Shown: positions 4,548-40,070 of the stretch, piece by piece
Position numbering within the stretch: position 1 is the stretch's first letter
Layout of the letters: every line of letters starts with the position of its first letter
NCBI GenBank assembly: GCA_934644775.1
Contig: CAKUDB010000001.1
Span: forward strand, 36,441-100,440
From: an uncultured bacterium
GTDB taxonomy: Bacteria; Vulcanimicrobiota; Xenobia; Xenobiales; Xenobiaceae
Reading direction: 5' to 3'
DNA length: 64,000 nt
Notes under the pieces: model-generated
What the model saw: the letters and a program-made list of their open reading frames with translations, nothing else
Told to the model about the DNA's origin: nothing
The model's database searches: none
Translations under genes and position numbers: made by a program

Positions 4548-4670
4548 GCCAAAATATTTTTTGAAGGCGTATCCTAAAAAAACAGAAAGAAAAGGCGCTT
4601 CTGCCTGCAATAGAGAACTTTCATTTTACAAAATATAATAACTTTATAGGGCCGAGGAAGGGGAAAGAAC

Positions 4671-7600
4671 GTGGATTTTTCTAAGTACAAGGGCTGGCTG
4701 TATATGAATCGCTGTCGCACTTCGAGCAGGAGGAGTACTAGCCTTACCAGTCCTTACTTATCTTTAGTTAAAGTATTAGGCGACACCGTTACGGATATAG
4801 AAAGACAATCGATAAACTCAGAAAACTGTAAAAAACAAGAAAAAAATAATCAGCAAAAAAATGAAAATATAAAAGAGACAGCTTCTCGTTCTGCCAACAG
4901 CTATAGTTGGGCCGACAACTTTGAATTTGATCCTTTTGATGAAAGCATTTTGACGGGTTGGAAGAGGACTAAAAAGCAACGCAGTATAGAATTGCCAGCT
5001 TTTTCTCCCTCGGGAGTAAAAGTAACTTCTATAGCCGAAGCCGCTTTTGCCGATTCTACCGATTTAGCCAAAATTATCATCCCCGAAGGGATCGTCTCTA
5101 TCGGCCAAGGGGCCTTTCTCAATTGTAGTAGTTTAGGCGGCATAGTTTTGCCCACTACCTTAAAAAGTATCGGCGACGGGGCTTTTAAGGGTTGCGTATC
5201 TTTAAAGAATATAACTTTGGGATCGTCTTTAGAGCGTTTGGGTCGCTCGGCTTTTAGCGAATGTACTTTGCTAAAAAAAGTAGCTTTCGCTCCGGGATCC
5301 GTGTTAAAAGAGATCCCTTCGTTATGTTTTTTTGAATGTGAAAGTTTACACGAAATAAAATGGCCTGAAGCTTTGCAAGCCATAAAAGAAGAGGCTTTTC
5401 GCGGTTGTACCGGCCTTGAGAGTATTAGTTTGCCCTCTTCTTTAGAGCAAATAGGTTATTCAGCTTTTCGTGGCTGTACCCGTTTAAAGTTGATACGTAT
5501 TCCCCAAAAGCTTATAACTCTGGCCGAATTTGCTTTTGCCGAATGTTCTGCCTTAGAAAGGGCCGAGTTACCCGAACATATTACTACTTTAGAAGGTGGT
5601 ATTTTTAGCAATTGCTCCAAGATGCGCTCTGTAAAGCTGAGCAACGCTTTGCAAAAGGTTGGCTTTAGTGCTTTTAGCGGCTGTACCTCTTTAAAAGATT
5701 TTTCTTTTCCTGCTTCTCTTTCGGCTGTTGGAGTGCGAGCCTTTTGTGATTGTGTAAGTTTGCAAAAGATCGATTTAAGTCGTTGTAAATTATCCATTTT
5801 GGAGCAAGAGGTCTTTAGCGGTTGTAGCGGCTTACACGAAATTTATTTGCCTTTTTGCCTACAAAAAATTTATAAAGCCTGTTTTAAAGGGTGTACCGAG
5901 CTTTATAGCGTGGAAATTCCCTCTGAGGTTAATTCTTTAGGAGAGCGCTGTTTTGAAAATTGTCGCAAACTTCACGAAATAGATCTTAGTGCTATTCCTC
6001 TAGCTATCCCTGAAGGTTTTTGTGCCGATTGCTCTCAGCTTACCTCTATTAGTTTCCACAATGATACTCCAGAAATAGGGGTGGGCGCTTTTGCCAATTG
6101 TCGCTCTTTAGTTAAGCTCGAGTTGCCGGAAAAGTTGCAAATTATCCGCGAGCGGGCCTTCTTAAATTGCTCGAGCCTCACAGAAATAGATTGTGGTAAG
6201 CAATTGCGTCGGCTCGGCTCTGAAGCTTTTAAAGGGTGTAACGCTTTGCGTCGAGTCGATTTGCCCGCCTCTTTAACCGTATTTGGCAAAGAAGGGCCGA
6301 TCTTTAGTAACGAAGCTGATGAATTAGTTATTTACGGTACGCCCAGCAGCAGTGCCGAAGATTATGCCCGCTTACATCGCATAAAGTTCTACGATCCTTT
6401 GCTCCACGAAATAAAAGAAGATGGCGGTGAAGAGGGTGACTATTTTGACAATAACGAGCTAGCTGAAGATACTTCCGACGAAGATCTTACCCCCGAAGAG
6501 GAAGAGACTGAGGTATTAGTGCCAGGCAGCCAGACCGTCTCTCGTCAGGTATTCGGTTTGCGGGTTAGTCCTTCTTCTTACAAATCTATCACTTCCAAGG
6601 GCGATTGGATCGTTATTCGCCACAAAGCCTTTGAGAAAAAAGCCGACGCTCGCTCCAATGTCCCGGTGGCTGTCCATTTAGAAGGCATAAACCATATAGG
6701 CAACAGAGCTTTTTGTAATCGCAACGTAGTATTTCTCGATTGTTCCGACAATTTAGTCTCTATTGGCAAAGCCGCTTTCTGGGGCTGTAGCTTATTGCAA
6801 AAAGTGCGCTGGTCTAAGCGTTTAAGTTTTATCGATAAAAGTGCTTTTTGGGGCTGCCACTCCTTAAAAACTCTGGATTTCCCCGATTCTTTGCAATTTA
6901 TCGATAATTGGGCCTTTTTGGGTTGCTCCGCTATAGAAAGTATCCATTTGCCCTCTTATTTAGTCTCTTTGGGAGATTATGTCTTCGCTTATTGCTCAAG
7001 TTTAGTTAATATTGTTATCCCTTCGGGGACTCGTTCTTTAGGCGTGGGCGTCTTTTTCGGCTGTAAGGCTCTGCGCCGAGTAGTTATACCCCCTTCTGTA
7101 AAACAGTTCGGCCCAGAAATGTGCCAATTTAGCCCTATTTTTGGCAGTGGTTGCCTTTTAGACGAGGGCAATAATGGCGAAGCTGATAAAAAAGATCAAG
7201 ATACAGAGCAAATTATTATCGTTTGCCAAAAAGATTCAGCAGCTCATGAATATGCTTTGCATTATGGCCTTAAGTGCGAGTTAATTAACTTCGAAGACGG
7301 TAGCTTGGCTAACGAGCTAATTAAAGGCGGAGGTTATATGCTCTGCGGCTTGGGCGTTTCAGATAGCACCTCTAAGTGTAGCCAAGCTTTTAGCGCTAAG
7401 TCTAAGCCAAGCCCTTCTCGGCCTGTAGTGCGCCTACTTAATGGGCGGCCAAACACTAAAGAGAAGGTCTCTAAGGTTGGCCTTTGGGCTGCTTCCAATA
7501 GCCGCCCAGAATTATCCCCTTCTACTACTTTCGCCCTTCTCCAAGGGGCTTACGAAGTGCTCGATCTGGCCGATTATTTGAAGGCTTGGCACAGAGCTTC

Positions 7601-9209
7601 GGCTTCGAGTGTAAAAAGGATCCTTAATTCTTCGCGTTTATTCTCTTCTATAGAAGATATATCGCCTATTAAAAATATTATCGCTAAAGAAGCTAAACCG
7701 TCAGTTCCAGAGTTGCCCCAAGAACCAGGGCCCAAAAAGATTCTGAAGGCGGCCAGCGATATTTTAGACTATATGGAAAAGATAGGCTGGTTCCATCACT
7801 TTGGCTTAGAAGCAGCCAAGAAAAGCTATCGTTTGCCTAAAAAGCCTTTAGTAGAAAATACTTTGGCAAAATCGCCTGCCCCTCAAGTAGAGCTGCCGCC
7901 GGAAAGGCTCGCTCCTCAAGAGGCTGCCCCTTCTACACCCTCTATAAAAAAGGGCGCTGCCCCAATTTATGCTCCAGCTAAATATGCCAGGGATATTTTA
8001 AGGCCAGCTGCTCGAGAGCCTAAACATATCTTGTCTAAATTGTCCCTTCCTTACCGAAGCTCGGCCGAAAAATCTTCTTCTGGCGCTATCGCTGCCGCCG
8101 GAGCTTTAAGTAATAGCTCTCCTTCAGTAACGACCAAAATAAATTTAGAATTAGAGCGCTACTATAAAGGGGCCTTGGCTTTAAGTGGGATAAGGTCGCC
8201 AGGAGAGCCCAGTATCTTCTCCCTTTCCGATTCTGTTGAAGAAAAAACGGTTCTGGCAGCGGCTTCGGCGGCAACCCCGGCAGTTCCGACGACAACCTCG
8301 GCAGCTTCGACAGCTCCGGTAGCTCCGGTAGTTCCGGTAGTTCCGACGGCGGCCCCGGCAGCTTCGGCAATCAGCCCCAATGCTGAGCCTGTTGGTCAGG
8401 GGATCGTTTTGGCCAAAGTGCCCAATTTGTCTATTTCTAAAGTTAATGTGCCCGACGCTTTGGAAGGGCGTCTCGTCGAAGCTCTCAGCGACAATTTTAT
8501 GAAGGGCAATGACGTTGTAGAAGAGATCAACTTAGGCCCTTCTTTAAAAGTTATTGGTGTCGACGCCTTTAGAAGTTGTAGTCGCTTGCGCTTAGTCAAT
8601 ATGGCTAAAGAGGGTTTACAAATCGTTAAAGACGGGGCTTGGCGCAGTTGTGAGCGACTTACCGAAATAAGCCTTCCCGACACTATCCAAGAATTGGGCA
8701 GCCGAGTTTTCTGCGCTTGTAGTCAATTGCGCCAGGTTAAATTGCCTGCCTCTTTGCTTAAGCTTGGGGAGGCAGCTTTTGCCGATTGTCGCTCTTTACA
8801 AAGCTTAGAGCTTCCCCAGGGCCTCAAAGAAGTGGGCAGCAAAGCTTTCTTTGGCTGTCGCAATTTGGAAAGTATCTTTATCCCCGAATCTTTAGCCCAT
8901 TTGGAAGATAAGCTCTTCGACGTCTCTCAGAAGCTTACCATCTATGCTCCTGAGGGCTCGGCAGCCCAATCTTATGCTGTAGCTCACGCTATTCCCTTTA
9001 GTGAAGCTTCTATCGATACTTGGCAAGAGGTGGTGCTCCAAAGGAGACAAACTTCAGAAGCCCAAACTCAAGAGGCTCAGCAAGTTTCTGCCACTGATAC
9101 TATCCAGGTAGAGAGCGCCGAAAGTGTTAAAGATGAAAATATTTCTTTAGAGAAAAAAGCCAAATATCTTAAGAGAATAGCCGCTAGAACTAAGGGAAAG
9201 CGCCGCTAA
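4671..9209 (+). CDS. Giant BspA-type leucine-rich-repeat (LRR_5) protein, 1512 aa, two LRR blocks separated by acidic and Pro/Ala-rich low-complexity segments
   Basis: Many tandem ~23-aa repeats of the form L..I...AF..C..L..I.LP..L..IG..AF..C are present. They run across aa 120-540 and 1290-1430. A central DEE-rich region and a PAVPTTTSAAS...PVVPVVP tract separate them. No obvious signal peptide. The start is uncertain, with an alternative Met 11 codons downstream. Confidence 0.75.
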   Translation: MDFSKYKGWLYMNRCRTSSRRSTSLTSPYLSLVKVLGDTVTDIERQSINSENCKKQEKNNQQKNENIKETASRSANSYSWADNFEFDPFDESILTGWKRTKKQRSIELPAFSPSGVKVTSIAEAAFADSTDLAKIIIPEGIVSIGQGAFLNCSSLGGIVLPTTLKSIGDGAFKGCVSLKNITLGSSLERLGRSAFSECTLLKKVAFAPGSVLKEIPSLCFFECESLHEIKWPEALQAIKEEAFRGCTGLESISLPSSLEQIGYSAFRGCTRLKLIRIPQKLITLAEFAFAECSALERAELPEHITTLEGGIFSNCSKMRSVKLSNALQKVGFSAFSGCTSLKDFSFPASLSAVGVRAFCDCVSLQKIDLSRCKLSILEQEVFSGCSGLHEIYLPFCLQKIYKACFKGCTELYSVEIPSEVNSLGERCFENCRKLHEIDLSAIPLAIPEGFCADCSQLTSISFHNDTPEIGVGAFANCRSLVKLELPEKLQIIRERAFLNCSSLTEIDCGKQLRRLGSEAFKGCNALRRVDLPASLTVFGKEGPIFSNEADELVIYGTPSSSAEDYARLHRIKFYDPLLHEIKEDGGEEGDYFDNNELAEDTSDEDLTPEEEETEVLVPGSQTVSRQVFGLRVSPSSYKSITSKGDWIVIRHKAFEKKADARSNVPVAVHLEGINHIGNRAFCNRNVVFLDCSDNLVSIGKAAFWGCSLLQKVRWSKRLSFIDKSAFWGCHSLKTLDFPDSLQFIDNWAFLGCSAIESIHLPSYLVSLGDYVFAYCSSLVNIVIPSGTRSLGVGVFFGCKALRRVVIPPSVKQFGPEMCQFSPIFGSGCLLDEGNNGEADKKDQDTEQIIIVCQKDSAAHEYALHYGLKCELINFEDGSLANELIKGGGYMLCGLGVSDSTSKCSQAFSAKSKPSPSRPVVRLLNGRPNTKEKVSKVGLWAASNSRPELSPSTTFALLQGAYEVLDLADYLKAWHRASASSVKRILNSSRLFSSIEDISPIKNIIAKEAKPSVPELPQEPGPKKILKAASDILDYMEKIGWFHHFGLEAAKKSYRLPKKPLVENTLAKSPAPQVELPPERLAPQEAAPSTPSIKKGAAPIYAPAKYARDILRPAAREPKHILSKLSLPYRSSAEKSSSGAIAAAGALSNSSPSVTTKINLELERYYKGALALSGIRSPGEPSIFSLSDSVEEKTVLAAASAATPAVPTTTSAASTAPVAPVVPVVPTAAPAASAISPNAEPVGQGIVLAKVPNLSISKVNVPDALEGRLVEALSDNFMKGNDVVEEINLGPSLKVIGVDAFRSCSRLRLVNMAKEGLQIVKDGAWRSCERLTEISLPDTIQELGSRVFCACSQLRQVKLPASLLKLGEAAFADCRSLQSLELPQGLKEVGSKAFFGCRNLESIFIPESLAHLEDKLFDVSQKLTIYAPEGSAAQSYAVAHAIPFSEASIDTWQEVVLQRRQTSEAQTQEAQQVSATDTIQVESAESVKDENISLEKKAKYLKRIAARTKGKRR

Positions 9210-12946: not shown

Positions 12947-13459
12947 TTGCTATTTTTAGTCTTTGTTTATCTTTTTATCATCTTTTACTTATTTATTTTC
13001 TCTATAAATTTGGAACAAGCTCAGGCTAAAGCTGAAACTGCTGCGGCCGAAATTAACGCTATTACCAAAGATTGCAACCAGAGCTGGGCTTTAGATTGTC
13101 AATCTCAACCTTGGTGCGCCGCTTTTGCTACTGGCATCTTGGCTAAAAATGGCGTTATGGACTTTAGCAATTGCTCTAATGTAAACTATACTCCCACTTT
13201 GGTTGAGTGGTCTAAGAGCGAAGGTACTTGGAGCCAAGCTGGAGGCGATTATGAACCTCAATCTGGCGATATGATTATGTTCGACTGGGACAACACTCGC
13301 TCTGGTGCCGATCATGTAGGTATTGTAGTTAGCTACGATAATTCTACTGGAGTTGTCACTACTGTTGAAGGTAACAGCGGCTCTCCTGGAGCTGTCAGAG
13401 TAAAAACTTATGATCGTAACCAAGCTTGCGTAATGGGGTATATATCTCCCAACAAATAA
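12947..13459 (+). pseudogene. Orphan CHAP-domain gene fragment (C-terminal 135 aa homologous to the CHAP domains of the three downstream paralogs, closest to paralog 3); N-terminal 20 codons derive from a poly-T tract and are probably not coding
   Basis: Homology begins at AAAEINAITKDCNQSWALDCQSQPWCAAF. It runs through GDMIMFDWDNTRSGADHVGIV...TVEGNS...GYISPNK. There is no upstream GH73 or coiled-coil sequence and no RBS. A possible in-frame TTG lies at about 13010. Confidence 0.45.
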
Positions 13460-13547
13460 AGAGCAAGTAAAGCTCTGATATATGTTAAGCTTATCTTATA
13501 AGCAGCCTTCTACACTAGGAAGGTTGCTTATTTTTTTTATTTGCAAT

Positions 13548-13607
13548 GTAAAATAAATGTTAACATGGGTTTTTCCCTCTAGATAGAATGGAAATAGCCC
13601 TTGATAA
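13548..13607 (+). promoter_or_regulatory. Conserved promoter-like module copy 1: GTAAAATAAATGTTAA-N16-TAGATA ... CTTGATAA
   Basis: The same module occurs about 90-125 nt upstream of all three paralog start codons. It reads TGTTAA-N16-TAGATA, a sigma70-like -10 with a weak -35 and an A/T-rich upstream tract. Confidence 0.45.
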
Positions 13608-13692
13608 GCTAATTGACAATAGACAGAACGGACAATCGGAGGCCAGGGGCCCAGTTGTTTTTTTTGTGATAGGTTAGGAGAAGAATTATTGC

Positions 13693-16600
13693 ATGTCATT
13701 AGATAAGATTTCCAGCTTTTTAGGTATATCGGGTATTTCTGCTACCACCTCCAGCGCTGCTGCGCCTAGCAATAGTAGTTTAGGTTTTGCTACTAACGAT
13801 TCTATTTCTTTATCTGGCTCTGAAGCTATCAACGCTTTCGGATCGCTTAGTGTTGCTTCCTTAGACGATGAAGCTGCCGCTACTCAAAGTGTCGAAGGTG
13901 CCGAAGCGGCTGCTGCTCGAGCTACCCAAGCTGGTGTTAAAGCTGAAGAAGCTGCCGACAAAACTGTCAAGGCCAATGCCGACGATGAAAAGGCTCAGGC
14001 TAAAGCTAATTTAACTGGCGAAGAAGCCCGAGCCCAGGAGGCTGCCCAAGCTGAAAAGGCAGCCACTCAAGTTAAAACCCAAACTGAAGCTGCCGAGCAA
14101 GCCAAAACGGCTGCTGCTGCCAACGCCAATGTCGATGAGGCCAACACCGATTTAGAAAAAGCCCAGGCTGAGTTAGAAAAAGTTATCAACGAAGGCGACC
14201 AAGAGGGCAAAGAGGCCAACACGGCTGAAACTTTGGGCACTTTAGAGGCCGAAATGGAGCAGCTTAAAAAAGAGCAAGAGAAGAAGGCCCAAGAGCGCGA
14301 AGCCTTAGAGCAAAAACAAGCCCAATTAGTGGAAGATTTAGCCGAAGCCCAAGCCGACGGCGATCAAGAAAAAGTTAAACAACTTAGCCAAGAGCTGGAT
14401 CAAGTTAATCAGCAACTGAGCGCTTCTCAAGACGATCTTAGTTCTTTGCAAAATCGCATTTCCAATTTAGGTGATACTATCGACTCTACTCGCAACCAAC
14501 TCGATCAAGAAAATGCTGCCAAAGCCCAGAATCAGCAAGACAAAGTAAATAGCGCCCAGAGCGCTCAGCAAAACGCCGCTTCTAATGTCGAGCAAGCCCA
14601 AGCCCAGGCTACTTCGGCCAACGAGCAATCCCAAGCTGTTCAGCAAGCGGCTAGCCAGGCTGGCCAGGCTGCTACCGAGGCTAATGCGGCTGCCCAAGCT
14701 TCCCAGAGCGACGCTGCCAAAGCTGCTTCCGAAGCTCAAGACTCTAAGTCTAAGGCCGAGCAAGCTAAAGCCGACATGGAACAGCTTAAGTCTCAAGCTA
14801 CCCAAGCTCGCCAAGAAGCTACCACTAAAGCTGCCGAAGCTAATAAGGCCGATTCTGAAGTATCTCAGGCCCGGTCGGCTTTAGAAGCGGCCAAGGCAGC
14901 TAAAAAAATTATCGAAGATAAAGATGGCAATACCCAGCAAGTGCCAGACGAAGAAGCTATCGCTTCGGCCCAGTCGGCCTTAGACTCTGCCCAAGCTAAA
15001 GCCGAGGCCGCCCACAGCGCCGCCGATCAAGCTGAAAATAAAGCTGCTCAGTTAGAGAACCAGCTCGAGGCCGCCGAAGGTAAGTCGGAGCAAGCCCAAA
15101 ACCAAGCCACTCAGGCTAGCCAAGCTTCCGATCAGGCTGAAACTAAAGCTACCGACGAAGCTAGTAAAGCCGATCAAGCCCAAACTGAGGCTACCGAAGC
15201 TGATAACCAAGCCCAAGATGCGGCTGGCCAGGTTAATAGCGCCGATCAGAAAGCGGCTAAAGCTGGAGACACTGCCAACCAAATTGACGATAAGGCCCAA
15301 AAGGCTAAAGACGGCGTAGAGGCTGTGGAAGCGGCCAACGCTGCCGACCAAGCCGCCGCCGACAGTGCCCAAGATACGGCTGATCAGGCTAAAGACGACG
15401 CCGAGCAAACTAAAGACGGTCAAGCTGCCGCTACCGACGGAGTTAAAGACGCCTCTAAAGATGGTGCTAAAGACGGTGCCAAGATCGATCCCGAGAAGTT
15501 GCCCGACGGTGTCAAGATCGACAAGAATGGTAAGATGGTCGACTCTCAAGGCCATCAAGTTAATGCCGAAGGTAAGCGCGTCGACGAAAATGGCAAGGTC
15601 ATGAGCGAAGAAGAGATCGCGGCTGCCGATAAAGCTAAGGCCGAAGAAGCCAAATCTAAAGAAAGCTCTGGTGAAGCTGCCGACAATAAGAGCGACTTCG
15701 AAAAAGCTACCGGCACTAGCAACGAAGATTTGCAAAAGCTGATCAACCAACTCGGCCAGCAAATCGCCAACCAAGGGGCGGCTCAACAGGCTGCGGGTAA
15801 TAACGGCGGCTCCGGTGGTGGCGGCAACTATGGCGGCGGTAATTCTGGCGGCGGCAACTATGGTGGCGGTGGTACCGGCAGCGTAGGTGGCAGCGGCGGC
15901 AGCGGCTCAGTCGCTTCGGCTGGCCAGGCTGGCTCGGTTGGCAAAGTAGCCCTTAGCGATCAAAACGAGCAAGCTATGGCTAAAGCTATCGACAGCTTTT
16001 TGGCTGAGCAAGGCTCGGATGCTCCCGAAGGTACTGGCGCTCTCTTTGTCAAGGCTGGTAAAGAAAATGATGTCGATCCTCTCATTTTGGTCTCTATTGC
16101 CGGCCAAGAAACCCAGTGGGGCAAGACGGGTATCGGCATCAACGGTTGGATGGGCGTAGGCGCTTACGACTCCGATCCTAACAATGCCACCCGCAACTCT
16201 AAGTTCTCCGGCGTAGAGAATCAAATCAATGTCGGTGCCCGAACCTTCCACAACTTGCGTGAAAAGGGCGGAGCCTCTTCAGCCGATTCTATCGCTGCCC
16301 AGACTTCGGCAGTTAATAAAGCCGGCTGGGCTACCGACCAAAATTGGCATAACGGCGTCACCAGCATCTACCAAAATAAGGTAGCTCCTTATGTGCAAGC
16401 CAAGATGGAAGAAATAAAGGCTTCTTCTCCTAGTGGTGGCCCAGGTATCGATGCTGCTATAAATGAGGCTCTCTCTATGGAAGGTATGACTGAAGGTGGC
16501 AACGCTGCTCAGATCAATGCCATTACCAAAGATTGCAATAAGAGCTGGGCTCTCGATTGTCAGCAATATCCTTGGTGCGCTGCTTTTGCTACCGGTATTT

Positions 16601-16914
16601 TGGCTAAGAATGGCGTAGAAGACTTCTCCGGTTGCGACAACGTCAACTATACTCCCACTTTGGTCAATTGGTCGCAAGGCAAAGGCACTTGGAACCACGC
16701 CAGTGGCGATTATTCACCTAAGAAGGGCGATATGATCTTCTTCGATTGGGACGGATCCCGTACCAGCCCCGATCACGTAGGCTTAGTAGTTAATTACGAT
16801 TCCAACAGCGGCACCATTACTACCGTTGAAGGTAATAGTAGCAACTCTGTAAGAGTTAAAACTTACAACCGCAACGACTCTTGCGTATTAGGCTATACGT
16901 CTATTGGCGACTAG
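13693..16914 (+). CDS. Coiled-coil / Gly-rich linker / GH73 N-acetylglucosaminidase / CHAP amidase-peptidase multidomain peptidoglycan hydrolase, paralog 1 (1073 aa)
   Basis: RBS aggagaag sits upstream. Residues 60-640 are A/Q/E/K-rich heptad coiled coil. A GGSGGGGNYGGG linker follows. The GH73 motifs are AGQETQWGKTG (matches ESGWG) and WATDQNW (matches YATDxxY). The CHAP motifs are YPWCAAFATGIL (Cys), GDMIFFDWDGSRTSPDHVGLVV (His) and TVEGNS. No N-terminal signal peptide. Confidence 0.85.
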   Translation: MSLDKISSFLGISGISATTSSAAAPSNSSLGFATNDSISLSGSEAINAFGSLSVASLDDEAAATQSVEGAEAAAARATQAGVKAEEAADKTVKANADDEKAQAKANLTGEEARAQEAAQAEKAATQVKTQTEAAEQAKTAAAANANVDEANTDLEKAQAELEKVINEGDQEGKEANTAETLGTLEAEMEQLKKEQEKKAQEREALEQKQAQLVEDLAEAQADGDQEKVKQLSQELDQVNQQLSASQDDLSSLQNRISNLGDTIDSTRNQLDQENAAKAQNQQDKVNSAQSAQQNAASNVEQAQAQATSANEQSQAVQQAASQAGQAATEANAAAQASQSDAAKAASEAQDSKSKAEQAKADMEQLKSQATQARQEATTKAAEANKADSEVSQARSALEAAKAAKKIIEDKDGNTQQVPDEEAIASAQSALDSAQAKAEAAHSAADQAENKAAQLENQLEAAEGKSEQAQNQATQASQASDQAETKATDEASKADQAQTEATEADNQAQDAAGQVNSADQKAAKAGDTANQIDDKAQKAKDGVEAVEAANAADQAAADSAQDTADQAKDDAEQTKDGQAAATDGVKDASKDGAKDGAKIDPEKLPDGVKIDKNGKMVDSQGHQVNAEGKRVDENGKVMSEEEIAAADKAKAEEAKSKESSGEAADNKSDFEKATGTSNEDLQKLINQLGQQIANQGAAQQAAGNNGGSGGGGNYGGGNSGGGNYGGGGTGSVGGSGGSGSVASAGQAGSVGKVALSDQNEQAMAKAIDSFLAEQGSDAPEGTGALFVKAGKENDVDPLILVSIAGQETQWGKTGIGINGWMGVGAYDSDPNNATRNSKFSGVENQINVGARTFHNLREKGGASSADSIAAQTSAVNKAGWATDQNWHNGVTSIYQNKVAPYVQAKMEEIKASSPSGGPGIDAAINEALSMEGMTEGGNAAQINAITKDCNKSWALDCQQYPWCAAFATGILAKNGVEDFSGCDNVNYTPTLVNWSQGKGTWNHASGDYSPKKGDMIFFDWDGSRTSPDHVGLVVNYDSNSGTITTVEGNSSNSVRVKTYNRNDSCVLGYTSIGD

Positions 16915-16946
16915 TAAAATAGAGGCTTAATATAAGTCCTCCTAAA

Positions 16947-17000
16947 AGCTCTCCTTAACGGTCAAATTAAACGACTTGGCCGGGCGGGGGAGCTTTTTTT
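16947..17000 (+). terminator. Terminator-like hairpin plus T7 downstream of paralog 1
   Basis: agctctcc-N30-gggggagc-ttttttt lies inside the 131-bp 3' flank. That flank is identical after paralogs 1 and 2. Confidence 0.45.
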
Positions 17001-17036
17001 GTCCAGTTAGTTAAAGATTAGTTAAATAAGTTTAGT

Positions 17037-17096
17037 GTAAAATAAATGTTAAAACCATTTTTTAATTCTAGATAAAGATGGGAACATAATTGATAA
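17037..17096 (+). promoter_or_regulatory. Conserved promoter-like module copy 2: GTAAAATAAATGTTAA-N16-TAGATA ... ATTGATAA
   Basis: Same spacing as copy 1. It lies 98 nt upstream of the paralog 2 ATG. Confidence 0.45.
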
Positions 17097-17172
17097 TGGG
17101 AGTAATACGAGTAGGAAGGGTGCCGCTAGGTGCCGCCTTTTTTCGTTTACAGAAAGTTAGGAGAGTTACTGA

Positions 17173-20100
17173 ATGTCATTAGATAAGATCTCTAGCTTCT
17201 TAGGTATATCGGGTATTTCTGCTACCACCTCCAGCGCTGCTGCGCCTAGCAATAGTAGTTTAGGTTTTGCTACTAACGATTCTATTTCTTTATCTGGCTC
17301 TGAAGCTATCAACGCTTTCGGATCGCTTAGTGTTGCTTCCTTAGACGATGAAGCTGCCGCTACTCAAAGTGTCGAAGGTGCCGAAGCGGCTGCTGCTCGA
17401 GCTACCCAAGCTGGTGTTAAAGCTGAAGAAGCTGCCGACAAAACTGTCAAGGCCAATGCCGACGATGAAAAGGCTCAGGCTAAAGCTAATTTAACTGGCG
17501 AAGAAGCCCGAGCCCAGGAGGCTGCCCAAGCTGAAAAGGCAGCCACTCAAGTTAAAACCCAAACTGAAGCTGCCGAGCAAGCCAAAACGGCTGCTGCTGC
17601 CAACGCCAATGTCGATGAGGCCAACACCGATTTAGAAAAAGCCCAGGCTGAGTTAGAAAAAGTTATCAACGAAGGCGACCAAGAGGGCAAAGAGGCCAAC
17701 ACGGCTGAAACTTTGGGCACTTTAGAGGCCGAAATGGAGCAGCTTAAAAAAGAGCAAGAGAAGAAGGCCCAAGAGCGCGAAGCCTTAGAGCAAAAACAAG
17801 CCCAATTAGTGGAAGATTTAGCCGAAGCCCAAGCCGACGGCGATCAAGAAAAAGTTAAACAACTTAGCCAAGAGCTGGATCAAGTTAATCAGCAACTGAG
17901 CGCTTCTCAAGACGATCTTAGTTCTTTGCAAAATCGCATTTCCAATTTAGGTGATACTATCGACTCTACTCGCAACCAACTCGATCAAGAAAATGCTGCC
18001 AAAGCCCAGAATCAGCAAGACAAAGTAAATAGCGCCCAGAGCGCTCAGCAAAACGCCGCTTCTAATGTCGAGCAAGCCCAAGCCCAGGCTACTTCGGCCA
18101 ACGAGCAATCCCAAGCTGTTCAGCAAGCGGCTAGCCAGGCTGGCCAGGCTGCTACCGAGGCTAATGCGGCTGCCCAAGCTTCCCAGAGCGACGCTGCCAA
18201 AGCTGCTTCCGAAGCTCAAGACTCTAAGTCTAAGGCCGAGCAAGCTAAAGCCGACATGGAACAGCTTAAGTCTCAAGCTACCCAAGCTCGCCAAGAAGCT
18301 ACCACTAAAGCTGCCGAAGCTAATAAGGCCGATTCTGAAGTATCTCAGGCCCGGTCGGCTTTAGAAGCGGCCAAGGCAGCTAAAAAAATTATCGAAGATA
18401 AAGATGGCAATACCCAGCAAGTGCCAGACGAAGAAGCTATCGCTTCGGCCCAGTCGGCCTTAGACTCTGCCCAAGCTAAAGCCGAGGCCGCCCACAGCGC
18501 CGCCGATCAAGCTGAAAATAAAGCTGCTCAGTTAGAGAACCAGCTCGAGGCCGCCGAAGGTAAGTCGGAGCAAGCCCAAAACCAAGCCACTCAGGCTAGC
18601 CAAGCTTCCGATCAGGCTGAAACTAAAGCTACCGACGAAGCTAGTAAAGCCGATCAAGCCCAAACTGAGGCTACCGAAGCTGATAACCAAGCCCAAGATG
18701 CGGCTGGCCAGGTTAATAGCGCCGATCAGAAAGCGGCTAAAGCTGGAGACACTGCCAACCAAATTGACGATAAGGCCCAAAAGGCTAAAGACGGCGTAGA
18801 GGCTGTGGAAGCGGCCAACGCTGCCGACCAAGCCGCCGCCGACAGTGCCCAAGATACGGCTGATCAGGCTAAAGACGACGCCGAGCAAACTAAAGACGGT
18901 CAAGCTGCCGCTACCGACGGAGTTAAAGACGCCTCTAAAGATGGTGCTAAAGACGGTGCCAAGATCGATCCCGAGAAGTTGCCCGACGGCGTCTTTGTGG
19001 ATAAGAACGGTACCCTTTACAGTGAAGATGGTAAGAAGCTTCCCGAGGGCAGCACCCTCAACGAAGATGGCAAGTTAGTTAATGGCGAGGGTAAGCTCAT
19101 CGACAATAAGGGTAACCTGATCAACGAAGATGGGCAGCGCATTGGGGCCGACGGCAAGGTCATGAGTGAAGAAGAAATTGCTGCTGCCGACAAAGCCAAG
19201 GCCGACGAAGCTCAAGCTAGTGAAGCTAAAGCCAACGAGAGTGGTGCCAAGGCTGCCGACAATAAGAGCGACTTCGAAAAAGCTACCGGCATTAGCAACG
19301 AAGATTTGCAAAAGCAGATCGACCAACTCGGCCAGCAAATCGCTGCTCAACAGGCTGCAGCTGAAAATGGCGGCGGTGGCGGCGGCAACTATGGCAGCGG
19401 AGGCGGCGGCGTAGGTGGCGTCGGTGGTTCCGGTGGCGCTGGCCAAGTCGCTTCCGGAGCTTCAGTTAAGAGGAGTAGCGCCGCTGGCGATCTCGATCTT
19501 TCTAAGTGCTCCGACGAAGATATTGCTAAAGCTATAGATGGCTTCTTAGTCGAAAAAGGCTCGCCAGCTCCTGCCGGTACTGGGGATCTCTTCGTTGAAG
19601 CGGGTAAGAAATACGACGTCGATCCTTTGGTCTTACTCTCTATTGCTGGTCAGGAGACTCGCTGGGGTACCGCCGCAGGAAGCGTAGGTATCAACGGCTG
19701 GATGGGCGTAGGGGCCTACGACTCCGATCCTAATAACTCTACTCGCAATCCCATATTCAGAGGTGTAGAGAAGCAAATCTTTATGGGTGGCAAAACCTTT
19801 GCCAAATTGCGCGGGACGGGTGGATCTTCCTCTGATGCCTCTATTGCCGATCAGGCTGCAGCTGTCAATAAAGCCGGCTGGGCTACCGATCAGAATTGGC
19901 ACGATGGCGTAACTAAGATCTACCATGATCAAGTTGTTCCTTACATGTTGGAAAACTTGCCCGGTGCCGAGCTTAAGGGCAACAAGGGCATTGAAGGGGC
20001 CCTCGACGAGGCCCTCTCTATGGAAGGTATGACTGAAGGTGGCAACGCTGCTCAGATCAATGCCATTACCAAAGATTACAATAAGAGCTGGGCTCTCGAT

Positions 20101-20457
20101 TGTCAGCAATATCCTTGGTGCGCTGCTTTTGCTACCGGTATTTTGGCTAAGCATGGTGTAGAAGACTTCTCCGGTTGCTCCAATGTCAACTCTACCAACT
20201 ACTTGGTCAGTTGGTCGCAAGGCGAAGGCACTTGGAACCACGCCAGTGGCGATTATTCACCTAAGAGGGGCGATATGATCTTCTTCGATTGGGACGGATC
20301 CCGTACCAGCCCCGATCACGTAGGCTTGGTAGTTAATTACGATTCCAACAGCGGCACCATTACTACCGTTGAAGGTAATAGTAGCAACTCTGTAAGAGTT
20401 AAAACTTACAACCGCAACGACTCTTGCGTATTAGGCTATACGTCTATTGGCGACTAG
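17173..20457 (+). CDS. Coiled-coil / GH73 / CHAP multidomain peptidoglycan hydrolase, paralog 2 (1094 aa)
   Basis: The first ~1.8 kb is nucleotide-identical to paralog 1 apart from a few synonymous changes in codons 6-9. The central ~1 kb is divergent, with a different DGK-repeat number and a roughly 70%-identical GH73 domain. The 3' 440 nt plus 131-nt flank are again near-identical. Confidence 0.85.
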   Translation: MSLDKISSFLGISGISATTSSAAAPSNSSLGFATNDSISLSGSEAINAFGSLSVASLDDEAAATQSVEGAEAAAARATQAGVKAEEAADKTVKANADDEKAQAKANLTGEEARAQEAAQAEKAATQVKTQTEAAEQAKTAAAANANVDEANTDLEKAQAELEKVINEGDQEGKEANTAETLGTLEAEMEQLKKEQEKKAQEREALEQKQAQLVEDLAEAQADGDQEKVKQLSQELDQVNQQLSASQDDLSSLQNRISNLGDTIDSTRNQLDQENAAKAQNQQDKVNSAQSAQQNAASNVEQAQAQATSANEQSQAVQQAASQAGQAATEANAAAQASQSDAAKAASEAQDSKSKAEQAKADMEQLKSQATQARQEATTKAAEANKADSEVSQARSALEAAKAAKKIIEDKDGNTQQVPDEEAIASAQSALDSAQAKAEAAHSAADQAENKAAQLENQLEAAEGKSEQAQNQATQASQASDQAETKATDEASKADQAQTEATEADNQAQDAAGQVNSADQKAAKAGDTANQIDDKAQKAKDGVEAVEAANAADQAAADSAQDTADQAKDDAEQTKDGQAAATDGVKDASKDGAKDGAKIDPEKLPDGVFVDKNGTLYSEDGKKLPEGSTLNEDGKLVNGEGKLIDNKGNLINEDGQRIGADGKVMSEEEIAAADKAKADEAQASEAKANESGAKAADNKSDFEKATGISNEDLQKQIDQLGQQIAAQQAAAENGGGGGGNYGSGGGGVGGVGGSGGAGQVASGASVKRSSAAGDLDLSKCSDEDIAKAIDGFLVEKGSPAPAGTGDLFVEAGKKYDVDPLVLLSIAGQETRWGTAAGSVGINGWMGVGAYDSDPNNSTRNPIFRGVEKQIFMGGKTFAKLRGTGGSSSDASIADQAAAVNKAGWATDQNWHDGVTKIYHDQVVPYMLENLPGAELKGNKGIEGALDEALSMEGMTEGGNAAQINAITKDYNKSWALDCQQYPWCAAFATGILAKHGVEDFSGCSNVNSTNYLVSWSQGEGTWNHASGDYSPKRGDMIFFDWDGSRTSPDHVGLVVNYDSNSGTITTVEGNSSNSVRVKTYNRNDSCVLGYTSIGD

Positions 20458-20489
20458 TAAAATAGAGGCTTAATATAAGTCCTCCTAAA

Positions 20490-20543
20490 AGCTCTCCTTA
20501 ACGGTCAAATTAAACGACTTGGCCGGGCGGGGGAGCTTTTTTT
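20490..20543 (+). terminator. Terminator-like hairpin plus T7 downstream of paralog 2 (identical copy of 16947-17000)
   Basis: Identical sequence to the post-paralog-1 element. Confidence 0.45.
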
Positions 20544-20658
20544 GTCCAGTTAGTTAAAGATTAGTTAAATAAGTTTAGTGTAAAATGTTAGTCCTTTAAT
20601 TAACATATTCCCCGTGGCTCAAAGCAGAGGCTTTACGCCACCCTTAGTAAAAATTAAA

Positions 20659-20718
20659 AGTTAAATAAATGTTAAATCAGTAGATAAATTCTAGATAAAA
20701 TAAAGAAGTGCTTGATAA
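20659..20718 (+). promoter_or_regulatory. Conserved promoter-like module copy 3: TTAAATAAATGTTAA-N16-TAGATA ... CTTGATAA
   Basis: Same architecture as copies 1 and 2. It lies 90 nt upstream of the paralog 3 ATG at 20787. Relative to the paralog 2 upstream region, this one carries an about 75-bp insertion (20580-20655) containing inverted repeat atgtta-N10-taacat. Confidence 0.45.
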
Positions 20719-20786
20719 TATAGACAACGATACCTGTACATAGGTTGGATAGGCCTTGTGCTCGTAAAGGTAGGAGGGATTTTACT

Positions 20787-23234
20787 ATGACTATCAATAG
20801 CAACTACGACAATTCTGCTGCCATTAGACAGCAAGAAGAGGCTCGTCGTCAGGAGGAAGCCCGTCGTCGAGAAGAGGCTCGTCGCCAGGAAGAAGCTCGC
20901 AAAGCTGAAGAAGCTCGCAAGGCTCAAGAAGCTCAGCAAGCTAAAGAAGCCGAAGAGGCTCGCAAAGCTCAAGAAGCCCAAAGGGTCAGAGAAGAAGACA
21001 AAGTGGCCGTTACCAACAGCGAAGCAGCCGAATCTGGCAAAAGGGTAAAAGTTGCTTCTTTAGACGATGAAGGTGGCAGCTTCTCTGCCAGAGGAGAAGA
21101 GTTTAGCGGCACTAGCAGCAACTACGGCGCTAGAAAGTCCGAATATTCCACCCATGTTGCTTCCAGCGGTAGAACGCACGGCGGTGGTGGCGGCACTTTC
21201 AGCAGCAAGACCGAAGACAAGAGTTTTCTTGGAAAAGTCAAGGATGTTCTTGGCGGTGCTAAAGATAAAATTGTCGATCATATAAAAGACAAAGTCGCCG
21301 ACGGTTTAGATGGCGCTTCCGATTTAGCCGATAAGATCGGCATGGATGGCCTTTCTGACGATCTCGAAGAGATGGCTGACAAAGTTAGAGGTGAAGACGG
21401 CGAAGAAGTTTCCGACGCCGACAAAGCTAAGGCTAAAGACGGCGTAGAAAAAACTAAAGAAGAGATTAAAGAGAAGATTAAGGAAAAGAAACTCGAGAAG
21501 CTCAACCAAGAGAAAGAAGTCCAGACTAAGAAGCAAGAAGAGCTGGAGAAAAAGCGCGACGAGACTATCGAAGAGTTGGAAAAAGCCCAAGCTGCTGGCG
21601 ATCAGGCCAAAGTTAAAGAGCTTACCAACAAGCTCGACGGTATCAACGACGAACTTTCTGAAGTAAACGATAAGCTCGACAAGATCAATAAAAAGATCGA
21701 CGAGCTGGAGCCCAAGCCCGAAGAGGAAATGGAGAAGCTCCAGAAAGACATGGACGAGCTTAATAAGCAAGAAGAGGCTAAGCTCAAAGAAAAAGAAGAG
21801 CTGGAGAAGAAGCAAGAAGAGCTCGTTGAAGAGTTGGCTGCTGCCAAAGCGGCTGGCGACCAGGAGAAGATTGCCGAAATTACCAGCAAGTTGCAAGGCG
21901 TCAACGAAGACTTAGAAAAAGTCAACGGCGAGCTGGAAGATATTCAGTCACAAAAGCAGAACCTCCAGAAAGATATTGACAAGGTTCAGGGCGAGATCGA
22001 CGCCAAGAATCCTCCTGCTGAAGAGGCCGCTCCGGCTCAGGGTGCCGAAGGTAAGCAAGCTGCTTCTAACGAGGCCTCTGGGGCTCAGGGTGCCGCTAAT
22101 GGCAATAATGGTGCCAATGGCACTAATGGTGGCGGTGGCAACAATGGTGGCGGCGGTACCGGAGGTGTCAACGGTGGCGGTGGTGGCCGTGGCACTGGTG
22201 GTGTAGGTGGTACTGGCGCTGCTCAGGGTGCTGGCAATACTGGAGCTGCTGCTCGCACTACTGCGGCTGGCGACATCGATATTTCCAAGTGCTCCGACGC
22301 CGATGTGGCCAAGGCTATCGATGGCTTCTTGGCTTCTAAGGGCTCTTCGGCTCCCGAAGGTACCGGCGCTATGTTCGTTAAGGCCGGTAAAGAGAATAAT
22401 GTCGATCCCTTAGTATTGCTCTCTATTGCTGGTCAGGAGACCCAGTGGGGCAAGACGGGTATCGGTATCAACGGTTGGATGGGCGTAGGTGCCTACGACT
22501 CCGATCCTAACAACGCTACTCGCAATTCCAAGTTCTCTGGCGTAGAGAATCAGATCAATGTCGGAGCCCGAACTTTCGCCAACTTGCGCGCTAAGGGCGG
22601 ATCTTCTGCCGACGCCTCTATCGCCGAGCAGACTTCCGCTGTAAATAAAGCCGGTTGGGCTACCGACCAGAATTGGCATAAGGGCGTCACCAGCATCTAC
22701 CATGATCAGGTAGGCGCTTACATGCTCGAGCACCTCAAAGGTGCCGAAACTAAAGGCGGCAAAGGCGTGTCCGGTGCTCTCACCGAAGCTGGCTCTATGG
22801 TAGGCATGACCGAAAGTGGCAACGCTGCCCAGATCAATGCCATTACCAAAGACTGGAACCAGAGCTGGGCTCTCGATTGTCAGCAGCAGCCTTGGTGCGC
22901 CGCTTTCGCTACTGGTATTTTGGCTAAGCATGGTGTCATGGACTTTAGCAAGTGCTCCAATGTCAACTATACTCCCACTTTGGTAGAGTGGTCTAAGAGC
23001 CAGAAAACTTGGCAGCAGGGTGGCAACGGCTATGCTCCTAAGGCTGGCGATATGATTATGTTCGACTGGGACAACACCCGCAGCGGTGCCGACCACGTGG
23101 GTATCGTAGAAAGTTACGACGCAGCCAGCGGTACCGTTACTACTATTGAAGGCAATAGCAGCAACTCCGTACGTCGCAAGACTTATAATGTCAACGCCGC
23201 TTGTATTATGGGCTTCATTATGCCTAATAAATAA
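20787..23234 (+). CDS. Coiled-coil / GH73 / CHAP multidomain peptidoglycan hydrolase, paralog 3 (815 aa from ATG 20787)
   Basis: Start trimmed to the ATG with RBS taggaggg 8 nt upstream. The ORF-track TTG at 20745 is unlikely. The N-terminus has (EEARRQ)n hexapeptide repeats. E/K-rich coiled coil carries repeated AAGDQ(A/E)K(V/I)KEL...L.GVN.(E/D)L motifs. A GGGGNNGGGGTGG linker follows. The GH73 domain has AGQETQWGKTG and WATDQNW. The CHAP domain has QPWCAAFATGIL and DHVGIVESYD. Confidence 0.85.
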   Translation: MTINSNYDNSAAIRQQEEARRQEEARRREEARRQEEARKAEEARKAQEAQQAKEAEEARKAQEAQRVREEDKVAVTNSEAAESGKRVKVASLDDEGGSFSARGEEFSGTSSNYGARKSEYSTHVASSGRTHGGGGGTFSSKTEDKSFLGKVKDVLGGAKDKIVDHIKDKVADGLDGASDLADKIGMDGLSDDLEEMADKVRGEDGEEVSDADKAKAKDGVEKTKEEIKEKIKEKKLEKLNQEKEVQTKKQEELEKKRDETIEELEKAQAAGDQAKVKELTNKLDGINDELSEVNDKLDKINKKIDELEPKPEEEMEKLQKDMDELNKQEEAKLKEKEELEKKQEELVEELAAAKAAGDQEKIAEITSKLQGVNEDLEKVNGELEDIQSQKQNLQKDIDKVQGEIDAKNPPAEEAAPAQGAEGKQAASNEASGAQGAANGNNGANGTNGGGGNNGGGGTGGVNGGGGGRGTGGVGGTGAAQGAGNTGAAARTTAAGDIDISKCSDADVAKAIDGFLASKGSSAPEGTGAMFVKAGKENNVDPLVLLSIAGQETQWGKTGIGINGWMGVGAYDSDPNNATRNSKFSGVENQINVGARTFANLRAKGGSSADASIAEQTSAVNKAGWATDQNWHKGVTSIYHDQVGAYMLEHLKGAETKGGKGVSGALTEAGSMVGMTESGNAAQINAITKDWNQSWALDCQQQPWCAAFATGILAKHGVMDFSKCSNVNYTPTLVEWSKSQKTWQQGGNGYAPKAGDMIMFDWDNTRSGADHVGIVESYDAASGTVTTIEGNSSNSVRRKTYNVNAACIMGFIMPNK

Positions 23235-23308: not shown

Positions 23309-23473
23309 CCCTAATTATCGCTACTCTTCTCAATTGATGCTGTTAGGCAGATGAAAAAAACTTTACTAACTGTTAATTTTGATTTATTATCTAGGTTAAG
23401 ATGGGCTGTTTGTGTGCATTTTTATATGTCCATCAAATTTTTTACTCCCAGGGATTGAGGAGGAACATAATTT

Positions 23474-28585: not shown

Positions 28586-28614
28586 TTGACTGACTATTTA
28601 ATTACCGTTATATT
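28586..28614 (+). promoter_or_regulatory. Sigma70-type promoter candidate for efflux operon (TTGACT-N17-TATATT)
   Basis: Canonical hexamers with a 17-nt spacer lie about 90 nt upstream of the MFP start. Confidence 0.5.
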
Positions 28615-39361: not shown

Positions 39362-40070
39362 AGGGAGGCGCATAGTAGCCGTAGAGGACGATCCTCACGT
39401 ATTAGATCTAATTAGAACTACTTTAGAAAGTGCCGGTTTTGTCGTATCTGGAGCTACTACCGGAGCCGAAGGCACTAGGCGTATTCGCGACGAGCTGCCC
39501 GATTTGGTCTTGCTAGACGTTAATTTGCCAGATATGTCGGGCTTTGATGTTTTAGAAGATGTGCGCCGCTCGCTAGGTATACCTTGTATTATGTTGACAG
39601 TCCAGGACAACGAAGACGCCAGAGTGCGCGGCCTGGAACTGGGAGCCGACGATTATATTGGCAAGCCCTTTGGCCATCGCGAACTGGTTAGCCGCATTAA
39701 AGCTGTCTTGCGCCGCTTAGACGCTCCGGCCCCTCTAGCTAGAAATAGAGTCGTTATCGATTCGCGCTTAACTGTAGATTTTGACCGCCGTTTGGCTGAA
39801 GTTGATGGCCAAGAGATCCACTTGCGACCCACCGAATATAAGCTCTTGCACCACTTTATTAACCATCCCGGCAAGTTGCTTAGCCACGAAAACTTACTTT
39901 CCCGAGTGTGGGGGCCCGAATACCGCGACGATACTCAGCTCTTGCGCTTATATGTAAACTATTTGCGCAAAAAGATCGAGCCCGATCCAGCTAATCCGCG
40001 CTATATCTTTAACGAGCGCGGTTTAGGCTACCGTTTTTGCGAATACGAGAAAAAAGATCAGCAAAAATAG
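39336..40070 (+). CDS. OmpR-family response regulator (receiver + winged-helix)
   Basis: Receiver signature RIVAVEDDPH...DLVLLDVNLPDMSG. Winged-helix C-terminus LRLYVNYLRKKIE. The 5' end overlaps the kinase stop. Confidence 0.8.
   Translation: MMTPTPSYKGRRIVAVEDDPHVLDLIRTTLESAGFVVSGATTGAEGTRRIRDELPDLVLLDVNLPDMSGFDVLEDVRRSLGIPCIMLTVQDNEDARVRGLELGADDYIGKPFGHRELVSRIKAVLRRLDAPAPLARNRVVIDSRLTVDFDRRLAEVDGQEIHLRPTEYKLLHHFINHPGKLLSHENLLSRVWGPEYRDDTQLLRLYVNYLRKKIEPDPANPRYIFNERGLGYRFCEYEKKDQQK

Follow-up and report, generated by a model that had tools for sequence, protein, structure and literature searches.

Three paralogous lysin genes of an uncultured gut bacterium of the class Xenobia, lys1, lys2 and lys3, are each preceded by a 60-base module. 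At least four other relatives of 'Candidatus Bruticola', a lineage of Vulcanimicrobiota/Eremiobacterota from the gut, share this conserved module. [quoted passage not shown]

The lysin genes and their genomic context

The window, that is, the whole 64-kb stretch of DNA that was analysed, is chromosomal, carrying TamB, an AcrAB-TolC-type pump and the fusA-tuf-S10-spc-alpha ribosomal cluster, and identical loci were found in metagenome assemblies from the human gut. Among named homologs, the one closest to lys3 (74% identity) is from 'Candidatus Bruticola sp.' (Vulcanimicrobiota/Eremiobacterota, class Xenobia). A TamB-family protein (1423 aa) and a BspA-type leucine-rich-repeat protein (1512 aa) are encoded at 276-9209 and, together with AcrAB-TolC, confirm a diderm envelope in this Eremiobacterota gut lineage.

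The features discussed below are collected in Table 1. All three lysins end in a CHAP domain, and lys3 additionally matches the Pfam Glucosaminidase model and endolysin PHROGs; the glucosaminidase-like region of lys1 is a similarity seen by eye, Pfam giving CHAP alone for this protein. The proteins begin with MSLDKISSFLGISG... or MTINSNYDNSAAIRQQEE...; a coiled-coil or low-complexity stretch of 450-900 aa then precedes the glucosaminidase-like and CHAP domains, an order of coiled coil and CHAP that is reminiscent of PcsB. All three also contain a Gly-rich linker. The start codon of lys3 was taken to be the ATG at 20787, which lies behind a GGAGG, rather than the TTG at 20745. No obvious signal peptide was found in lys1, lys2 or lys3. 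A further ORF at 13010-13459 (149 aa), situated between a His_Phos gene and lys1, encodes a CHAP domain only, is 70% identical to the C-terminus of lys1 and has no module; the syntenic locus L012 has no counterpart of it at this position, and it is probably a truncated extra paralog.

Table 1. Positions of the lysin genes and of the elements of the three modules in the window.
Feature	Position	Strand	Description
lys1	13693..16914	+	1073 aa: coiled-coil/low-complexity, Gly-rich linker, glucosaminidase-like region, CHAP
lys2	17173..20457	+	1094-aa paralog; its first 607 residues are 100% identical to those of lys1
lys3	20787..23234	+	815 aa: coiled coil, Glucosaminidase (PF01832), CHAP (PF05257)
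Intrinsic terminator of upstream CHAP ORF	13498..13541	+	ends 6 nt before Box A
Box A, copy 1	13547..13563	+	TGTAAA-ATAAA-TGTTAA; putative OmpR/PhoB-family site, perfect WalR-consensus match
TAGATA, copy 1	13580..13585	+	proposed weak -35; core of the TCTAGATA box of the initial annotation
GATAAG, copy 1	13603..13608	+	proposed -10, inside the CTTGATAA box of the initial annotation; predicted start ~13615
Box A, copy 2	17036..17052	+	TGTAAA-ATAAA-TGTTAA
Core promoter, copy 2	17069..17097	+	TAGATA-N17-GATAAT, in promoter-scan list; predicted start ~17104
Decayed Box A remnant	20579..20591	+	TGTAAAATGTTAG, 4-nt spacer deletion; end of the duplicated lys1/lys2 3' flank
Box A, copy 3	20659..20675	+	AGTTAA-ATAAA-TGTTAA; one mismatch to TGTWAH-N5-TGTWAH
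Extra TAGATA, copy 3 spacer	20681..20686	+	11 bp after TGTTAA, 11 bp before the -35-like TAGATA
Core promoter, copy 3	20692..20719	+	TAGATA-N16-GATAAT; predicted start ~20726

Three copies of the module in the window

The three copies that had been described upstream of the lysin genes are all present, at 13547-13608, 17036-17097 and 20659-20719, and their number is far above chance: TGTTAA-N16-TCTAGATA occurs three times in the window (0.00 expected from shuffles), TAAATAAATGTTAA, with up to two mismatches allowed, is found at the three module sites and nowhere else in the window, and TAGAT-N17/18-GATAA occurs four times where 0.22 are expected, three of the four being modules. The boxes are 88-100% identical between the window copies and the 60-nt flanks 22-32%, which is the random level, so that the intergenic DNA around the modules is indeed otherwise unrelated, as the initial annotation had stated.

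The geometry is somewhat different from what had been proposed. The gap between TCTAGATARA and (C/A)TTGATAA, given before as 10-15 nt, measures 11-12 nt, and hence the whole 60-nt module has a fixed geometry; likewise, the modules end 86 nt upstream of the ATG at 13693, 77 nt upstream of that at 17173 and 69 nt upstream of that at 20787, and not 90-125 nt upstream of the start codons. The left box was rightly placed as to position, yet its conserved part reaches 1-2 nt further left than its former border, which makes it a 17-nt direct repeat, [T/A]GT[A/T]AA-ATAAA-TGTTAA, hereafter Box A. Each of the three modules is preceded by a terminator, and as that of the upstream CHAP ORF lies just before Box A of copy 1, the module begins a new transcription unit.

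The lysin genes have themselves been duplicated, and it could be asked whether the modules resemble each other as functionless remnants of a tandem duplication or of gene conversion. The tandem duplicates are lys1 and lys2, whose 3' flanks (16915-17050 and 20458-20590) are identical as far as ...GTTTAGTGTAAAAT and whose first 607 codons specify identical residues (13693-15513 versus 17173-18993), the proteins diverging afterwards. Synonymous differences are found within the first ~35 nt of the two coding sequences, which suggests a recent gene-conversion tract that would end short of the promoters. The duplicated flank after lys2 ends in the decayed Box A, placing the duplication junction inside Box A, and the true lys3 module lies 65 nt beyond this remnant. 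Nevertheless, we give the remnant explanation next to no credence: conservation is confined to short boxes in randomised intergenic DNA, the opposite of what a conversion tract leaves, such that the promoters of lys1 and lys2 share the boxes alone despite 607 identical codons, and lys3, whose 5' coding end is unrelated to that of lys1 and lys2, has the same module. Decisively, the boxes are kept in at least four other species in which the flanks are down to 34-54% identity, and this cross-species footprint rules out leftover paralogy or gene conversion.

Conservation across relatives

The footprint was established by comparing orthologous promoters from L012 (syntenic, a second Bruticola species), L015 (a third species or strain) and L024 (an NCBI MAG), along with promoters from L020 and L022 (a distant species, 60% protein identity) and ten instances from a metagenome pattern scan. 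Compared pairwise across species by gene type, Box A is 95-100% identical and the hexamers TAGATA and GATAAT 89-100%, while outside the boxes the leader reaches 49-64% identity and the upstream flank has the low values given above; the spacers of the lys1 and lys2 types are 45-66% identical. In individual orthologs, Box A of copy 1 is 100% conserved in L015 and L034, that of copy 2 is identical in L012 and reads TGTTAA-ATAAA-TGTTAA in L024, and that of copy 3 has orthologs in L015, L034, L061, L116 and L012. The module is thus clearly a real and conserved phylogenetic footprint, and the earlier proposal of a promoter-type regulatory element common to the three lysin paralogs is supported.

Exceptions were found for Box A, which is missing from L012 lys1 even when two mismatches are allowed, is displaced by ~8-10 bp in L012 lys2 and is degenerate in L020, from the species of 60% identity. 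The loci L001-L005 are identical across the module, so strain-level polymorphism is uninformative. No module was found at the more distant homologs P0004 (L013/L014), P0013 (L016-L018), P0048 (L019) and P0011 (L023), P0004 having an ordinary TTGACA-N17-GATAAA promoter upstream.

Two other arrangements were seen near such distant homologs. At L016 9770-9815, and also in L017 and L018, a perfect palindrome, TTTGTAAA-GTTT-TTTACAAA, with a third TTTACAAA 12 nt later, stands upstream of a glucosaminidase-only homolog of another organism; it shares the word TGTAAA with Box A in an inverted arrangement and probably belongs to a different regulator. At L023 ~1470-1610, a lysin homolog of 50% identity is followed by an array of imperfect short tandem repeats (…GCGTGCCTTATATGTTAAGCGTCAA…), beyond which lie a terminator and an ordinary TTGACT promoter.

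The proposed core promoter

The initial annotation had read the module as TGTTAA (-35)-N16-TAGATA (-10), a pairing that turned out to be missing or mis-spaced in at least two of the ten orthologous or paralogous promoters compared. In contrast, T(A/T)GAT(A/T)-N16/17-(G/T)ATAA(T/G/A) is found in all ten, with TAGAT at the proposed -35 in nine and TTGATA in the tenth. The informative cases are L012 lys1, which has lost Box A and kept TAGATA-N17-GATAAT, L012 lys2, which has kept the left box and has TTGATA-N17-GATAAA further downstream, and the distant L020, with TAGATT-N16-TATAAG. As this pair is kept in ten of ten while the pairing of TGTTAA with TAGATA fails and leaves TTGATAA unexplained, we read TAGATA as the -35 and the -10 as contained in TTGATAA. 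We therefore regard it as more likely that the core promoter lies one box downstream of the earlier proposal, TAGAT(A/T) being a weak -35 and (G/T)ATAA(T/G/A) the -10, and transcription would then start at the predicted positions in Table 1, with Box A at about -68 to -52.

The former geometry has its own merits, and would correspond to a PhoB-like class II promoter in which a regulator at Box A replaces -35 recognition, TGTTAA lies at -35, TAGATA or the overlapping TAGAAT/TAAAAT serves as the -10, and TTGATAA, at ~+10 to +20, is an operator or leader element. All three copies in the window have TGTTAA-N16-TAGATA exactly, regulators of the PhoB type do substitute for a -35, and the best regional match of the promoter scan, TTAACA-N18-TAGAAT in copy 1, scores 10/12. 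We nonetheless consider this arrangement unlikely, though worth keeping in view: it leaves the most conserved downstream box, TTGATAA, unexplained, TAGATA has no T at the last -10 position, and the TAGAAT overlap exists in copy 1 only. Among the orthologs, it would leave L012 lys1 with neither Box A nor a usable -35, and it breaks down in L012 lys2, where the gap is 26 nt and TAGATA is absent, and in L015, where the spacer is 15 nt.

The core promoter that we prefer, TAGATA-N16/17-GATAAT, scores 9/12 in the promoter scan (copies 2 and 3), its -35 being weak and the last base of its -10 being T in only six of the ten promoters. The claim of a poor -35 is supported. As had been noted for the first two, standard promoters do exist elsewhere in the window, in the form TTGACT/TTTACA-N17-TAxxxT at 28586, 40091 and 44047, and the -35 without TTG is consequently a local deviation, typical of activator-dependent promoters.

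The deviation had led to the suggestion of an activator or an alternative sigma factor. The first part is supported by an activator-like site, as described below, while a dedicated sigma factor does not appear to be needed and none of the consensus sequences compared fits. Under the latter explanation, a pair of the three boxes would serve as -35 and -10, such as CTAGAT and TGATAAT, or else TGTTAA and CTAGATA. Bacillus autolysin genes are often under alternative sigma factors, and the non-consensus TAGAT is kept in nine of ten promoters, where a housekeeping -35 could drift to TTGACA. Yet the ECF (AAC...CGT), SigH, SigE and SigK consensus sequences, compared by eye, do not match, and TTGATA of L012 lys2 and TATAAG of L020 both shift toward the sigma-70 consensus, which leaves an alternative sigma factor very improbable. 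Sigma-28 (FliA/SigD), with the consensus TAAA-N15-GCCGATAA, was rejected, since the nearest upstream TAAA lies 11-12 nt from GATAA in copies 2 and 3 and is absent in copy 1, and CGA is replaced by TGA in box C, the TTGATAA box.

Three other candidates were set aside: an antisense promoter on Box A (TTAACA, minus strand) and TTGATA of box C as a -35, both of which lack a consistent -10, and a structured RNA leader, such as a ydaO/c-di-AMP riboswitch. Regarding the last, no Rfam family reached the gathering score across the window, and the folds of the leaders are not significant (z-scores of -0.5 to -1.7). Leaders of the lys1 and lys2 types do contain a G+C-rich hairpin and T run just before the ribosome binding site (17119-17144, ~13623-13667 and, in L015, ~2045-2090), a terminator-like arrangement that could be an attenuator, bearing in mind the non-significant z-scores of these folds.

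Box A as a putative response-regulator site

Box A consists of two hexamers set 11 bp apart and head-to-tail, [T/A]GTWAA and TGTTAA in every copy. Sites of the OmpR/PhoB family are composed of two similar 6-7-bp half-sites in direct orientation, 10-11 bp from centre to centre (PMC3264566), and Box A fits this rule with its similar half-sites, direct orientation, 11-bp period and location near a promoter; its half-sites are, in addition, conserved above the surrounding A/T-rich DNA. Across species, the first half-site takes the forms TGTAAA, TGTTAA, AGTTAA and AGTAAA, varying at position 1 (T/A) and at the W position only, and in no copy or species do the G and T of either half-site change, which favors base-specific protein contacts over mere A/T richness.

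This invariance also bears on another explanation, by which the module is a plain housekeeping promoter and Box A an A/T-rich UP element for the C-terminal domains of the RNA polymerase alpha subunits, with no dedicated regulator. The A+T content of Box A is 82-88%, the spacers of copies 1 and 2 are filled by T-tracts, and one ortholog, L012 lys1, does without Box A. Still, an UP element needs composition and not an exact sequence, whereas the G and T of both half-sites are held while the neighbouring A/T-rich spacers drift, and Box A at -68 to -52 would lie mostly upstream of the canonical position of UP elements, -59 to -38. For these reasons we consider an UP element quite improbable.

We then compared Box A to the consensus of WalR (YycF/VicR), TGTWAH-N5-TGTWAH (PMC9210968, PMC4168254), to which copies 1 and 2 have no mismatch and copy 3 has one. 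Perfect matches occur twice in the 64 kb, both in modules, versus 0.22 expected, and no shuffle reached two; matches with one mismatch are at chance level in the window (8 versus 6.9 expected). In other species, seven of the nine instances listed match with zero or one mismatch. The earlier view of the A/T-rich left box as resembling an activator docking site is supported by this direct repeat, in which the G and T positions do not vary. The spacer of 5 nt, ATAAA, hardly varies either, beyond what the WalR consensus demands, which could reflect recent common ancestry or a different protein. When Box A is read on the other strand, half-sites of the PhoP, MtrA and KdpE types fit about as well. 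The sequence of Box A is a firm pointer to the OmpR/PhoB family, within which the best match is to WalR, a likeness that does not by itself name the protein. The consensus sequences of LytTR (AgrA/ComE) and IHF were compared by eye and do not fit.

Modules of the lys3 type show a further regularity, with AGTTAA, TGTTAA, TAGATA and TAGATA forming four hexamers in exact 11-bp register, the extra TAGATA being kept in all lys3-type orthologs and the lys3-type spacer being 91% identical. Such a register would be well suited to cooperative binding on a single face of the helix.

Taken together, we propose that Box A, [T/A]GT[A/T]AA-N5-TGTTAA at about -68 to -52, docks the regulator dimer upstream of a core made of a -35-like TAGAT(A/T), 16-17 nt and a -10 of (G/T)ATAA(T/G/A). 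The phosphorylated regulator would occupy both half-sites on one face of the helix and, once bound, would recruit RNA polymerase to the poor -35, such that the three peptidoglycan hydrolase paralogs would be switched together on a cell-envelope or growth signal, by the same logic with which WalR drives autolysin genes in Firmicutes.

Comparison to known regulatory systems

The WalR-box promoters used for comparison were those of B. subtilis yocH, cwlO and lytE, S. aureus ssaA and lytM, S. pneumoniae pcsB and S. mutans gbpB and nlmC. The TGTWAH-N5-TGTWAH pattern (PMC9210968, PMC4168254) is identical, and copies 1 and 2 share the half-sites of the DNase-footprinted S. mutans VicR site of nlmC, TGTAAA-N5-TGTTAA. 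Box A also has the A that the VicR consensus, in its refined form, shows at position 7, and in both cases the repeat is found on the coding strand, ahead of the core promoter. The target genes are alike as well: WalR regulons are dominated by peptidoglycan hydrolase genes, and the lysin genes encode cell-wall hydrolases, with CHAP in all three and Glucosaminidase in lys3. Unlike in the known cases, the host is a diderm member of Vulcanimicrobiota/Eremiobacterota and not a Firmicute, the N5 spacer is conserved, and the target proteins are 800-1100 aa long with no obvious signal peptide. WalRK has been described as a Firmicutes system, and no walRK operon was seen in the 64-kb window and related contig fragments.

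The boxes of PhoB and B. subtilis PhoP are likewise head-to-tail repeats of 11-bp period with a TGT core (PhoB, CTGTCATA-N3-CTGTCACA), and stand at activator-dependent promoters with a poor or absent -35, a dependence that is putative here. Reverse-complemented, the half-site of B. subtilis PhoP, TT(A/T/C)ACA, reads TGT(T/A/G)AA, and it fits Box A on the opposite strand. In contrast to PhoB, the half-sites here are TGTWAA and not TGTCA, and in the geometry that we prefer Box A lies upstream of the -35, at a distance of one and a half turns, instead of replacing it; the orientation of Box A is opposite to that at PhoP-activated promoters, and the targets are not phosphate genes.

MtrA of Actinobacteria, whose MtrAB system is 'wal-like' and controls cell-wall hydrolase genes and cell division (PMC6265350), also binds a direct repeat with an 11-bp period, and its half-site in C. 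glutamicum, (A/G)TAACA, resembles the minus strand of TGTTAA. The actinobacterial sites are, however, more G/C-rich, more degenerate and differently oriented, and no MtrAB-LpqB genes were seen in the 64-kb window and related contig fragments.

KdpE, finally, binds TTTATA-N5-TTTACA at kdpFABC (PMC3264566), A/T-rich 6-bp direct repeats with an A/T-rich 5-bp spacer, as in Box A, whose minus strand reads TTAACA-TTTAT-TTTACA. One half-site differs at two of six positions and the orientation to the gene is reversed. The KdpE site is located at about -72 to -50, upstream of the -35, similar to the position of Box A. The kinase encoded nearby here is not KdpD, and the targets are lysins and not a K+ pump.

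Candidate regulator and regulon

The only two-component system in the window is encoded at 37697-40070, where the kinase gene comes first and overlaps the regulator gene (39336-40070) by 26 nt. The kinase is soluble and lacks transmembrane segments; an N-terminal domain without assignment is followed in it by PAS, HisKA and HATPase domains. The OmpR-family regulator scores about equally against the MtrA, RpaB, KdpE, PhoB and YycF models, in all cases below the cut-offs; its DNA-binding domain is closest to that of KdpE, and its recognition helix, LLRLYVNYLRKKIE, is KdpE-like rather than WalR-like and keeps both DNA-contacting arginines of KdpE. No Box A was found upstream of this operon, and no Kdp pump genes were found in the window. 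Since the KdpE site resembles the minus strand of Box A, this system is one candidate for the regulator, neither favored nor disfavored by the sequence.

As to other target genes, a search for DGTWAA-N5-TGTTAA-N16-TCTAGATA in 185,579 species genomes, a collection in which the present lineage has no exact match, gave six scattered matches in unrelated taxa, a chance level. A looser pattern gave at least 122 matches in a metagenome scan, ~110 of those listed being chance matches, ten of which represent a coding stretch of one conserved gene of an A/T-rich organism. Among the matches listed in the metagenome scans, the module stands only before lysin genes, with products that start MSLDKISSFLGISG... 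or M[ST]INSSYDNSAAIRQQ..., and no non-lysin member of a regulon was found in the window, in the genome-collection scan or among the metagenome matches listed.

A related element had been proposed in front of the Big_2 lipoprotein gene, and from it a small regulon. The string itself, TGTTAA-N15-TAGGTT at 23371-23397, is there, and its relatedness to the module did not hold up: it lacks the first half-site, and neither of its hexamers is conserved in L012 or L015, where what is conserved is an ordinary TTTACT-N17-TATTAT promoter at 23362-23390. The Big_2 element is probably a chance occurrence, and with its non-conservation in L012 and L015 the small regulon is left unsupported.

Implications

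We know of no promoter or regulon previously described for the gut Xenobia lineage of Eremiobacterota, and the module would be the first concrete cis-regulatory element proposed for it. The three paralogs, recently homogenised, keep separate and individually diverged promoters that share the functional boxes alone. In practical terms, the motif can help to predict when these unusual lysins are made. Should Box A be bound by a WalR-like regulator, control of autolysins of the Wal type would extend beyond Firmicutes and Actinobacteria, and Box A would serve as a defined 17-bp probe with which the regulator and its regulon could be sought in MAGs. More speculatively, and rather doubtfully at present, gut Xenobia may carry a Wal/Mtr-like envelope two-component system with the DNA specificity of Firmicute WalR, which would drive a lineage-specific family of giant coiled-coil CHAP lysins without signal peptides, functional analogues of PcsB; if so, both the logic by which an essential two-component system controls autolysins and its DNA code would predate the split of the Terrabacteria phyla.
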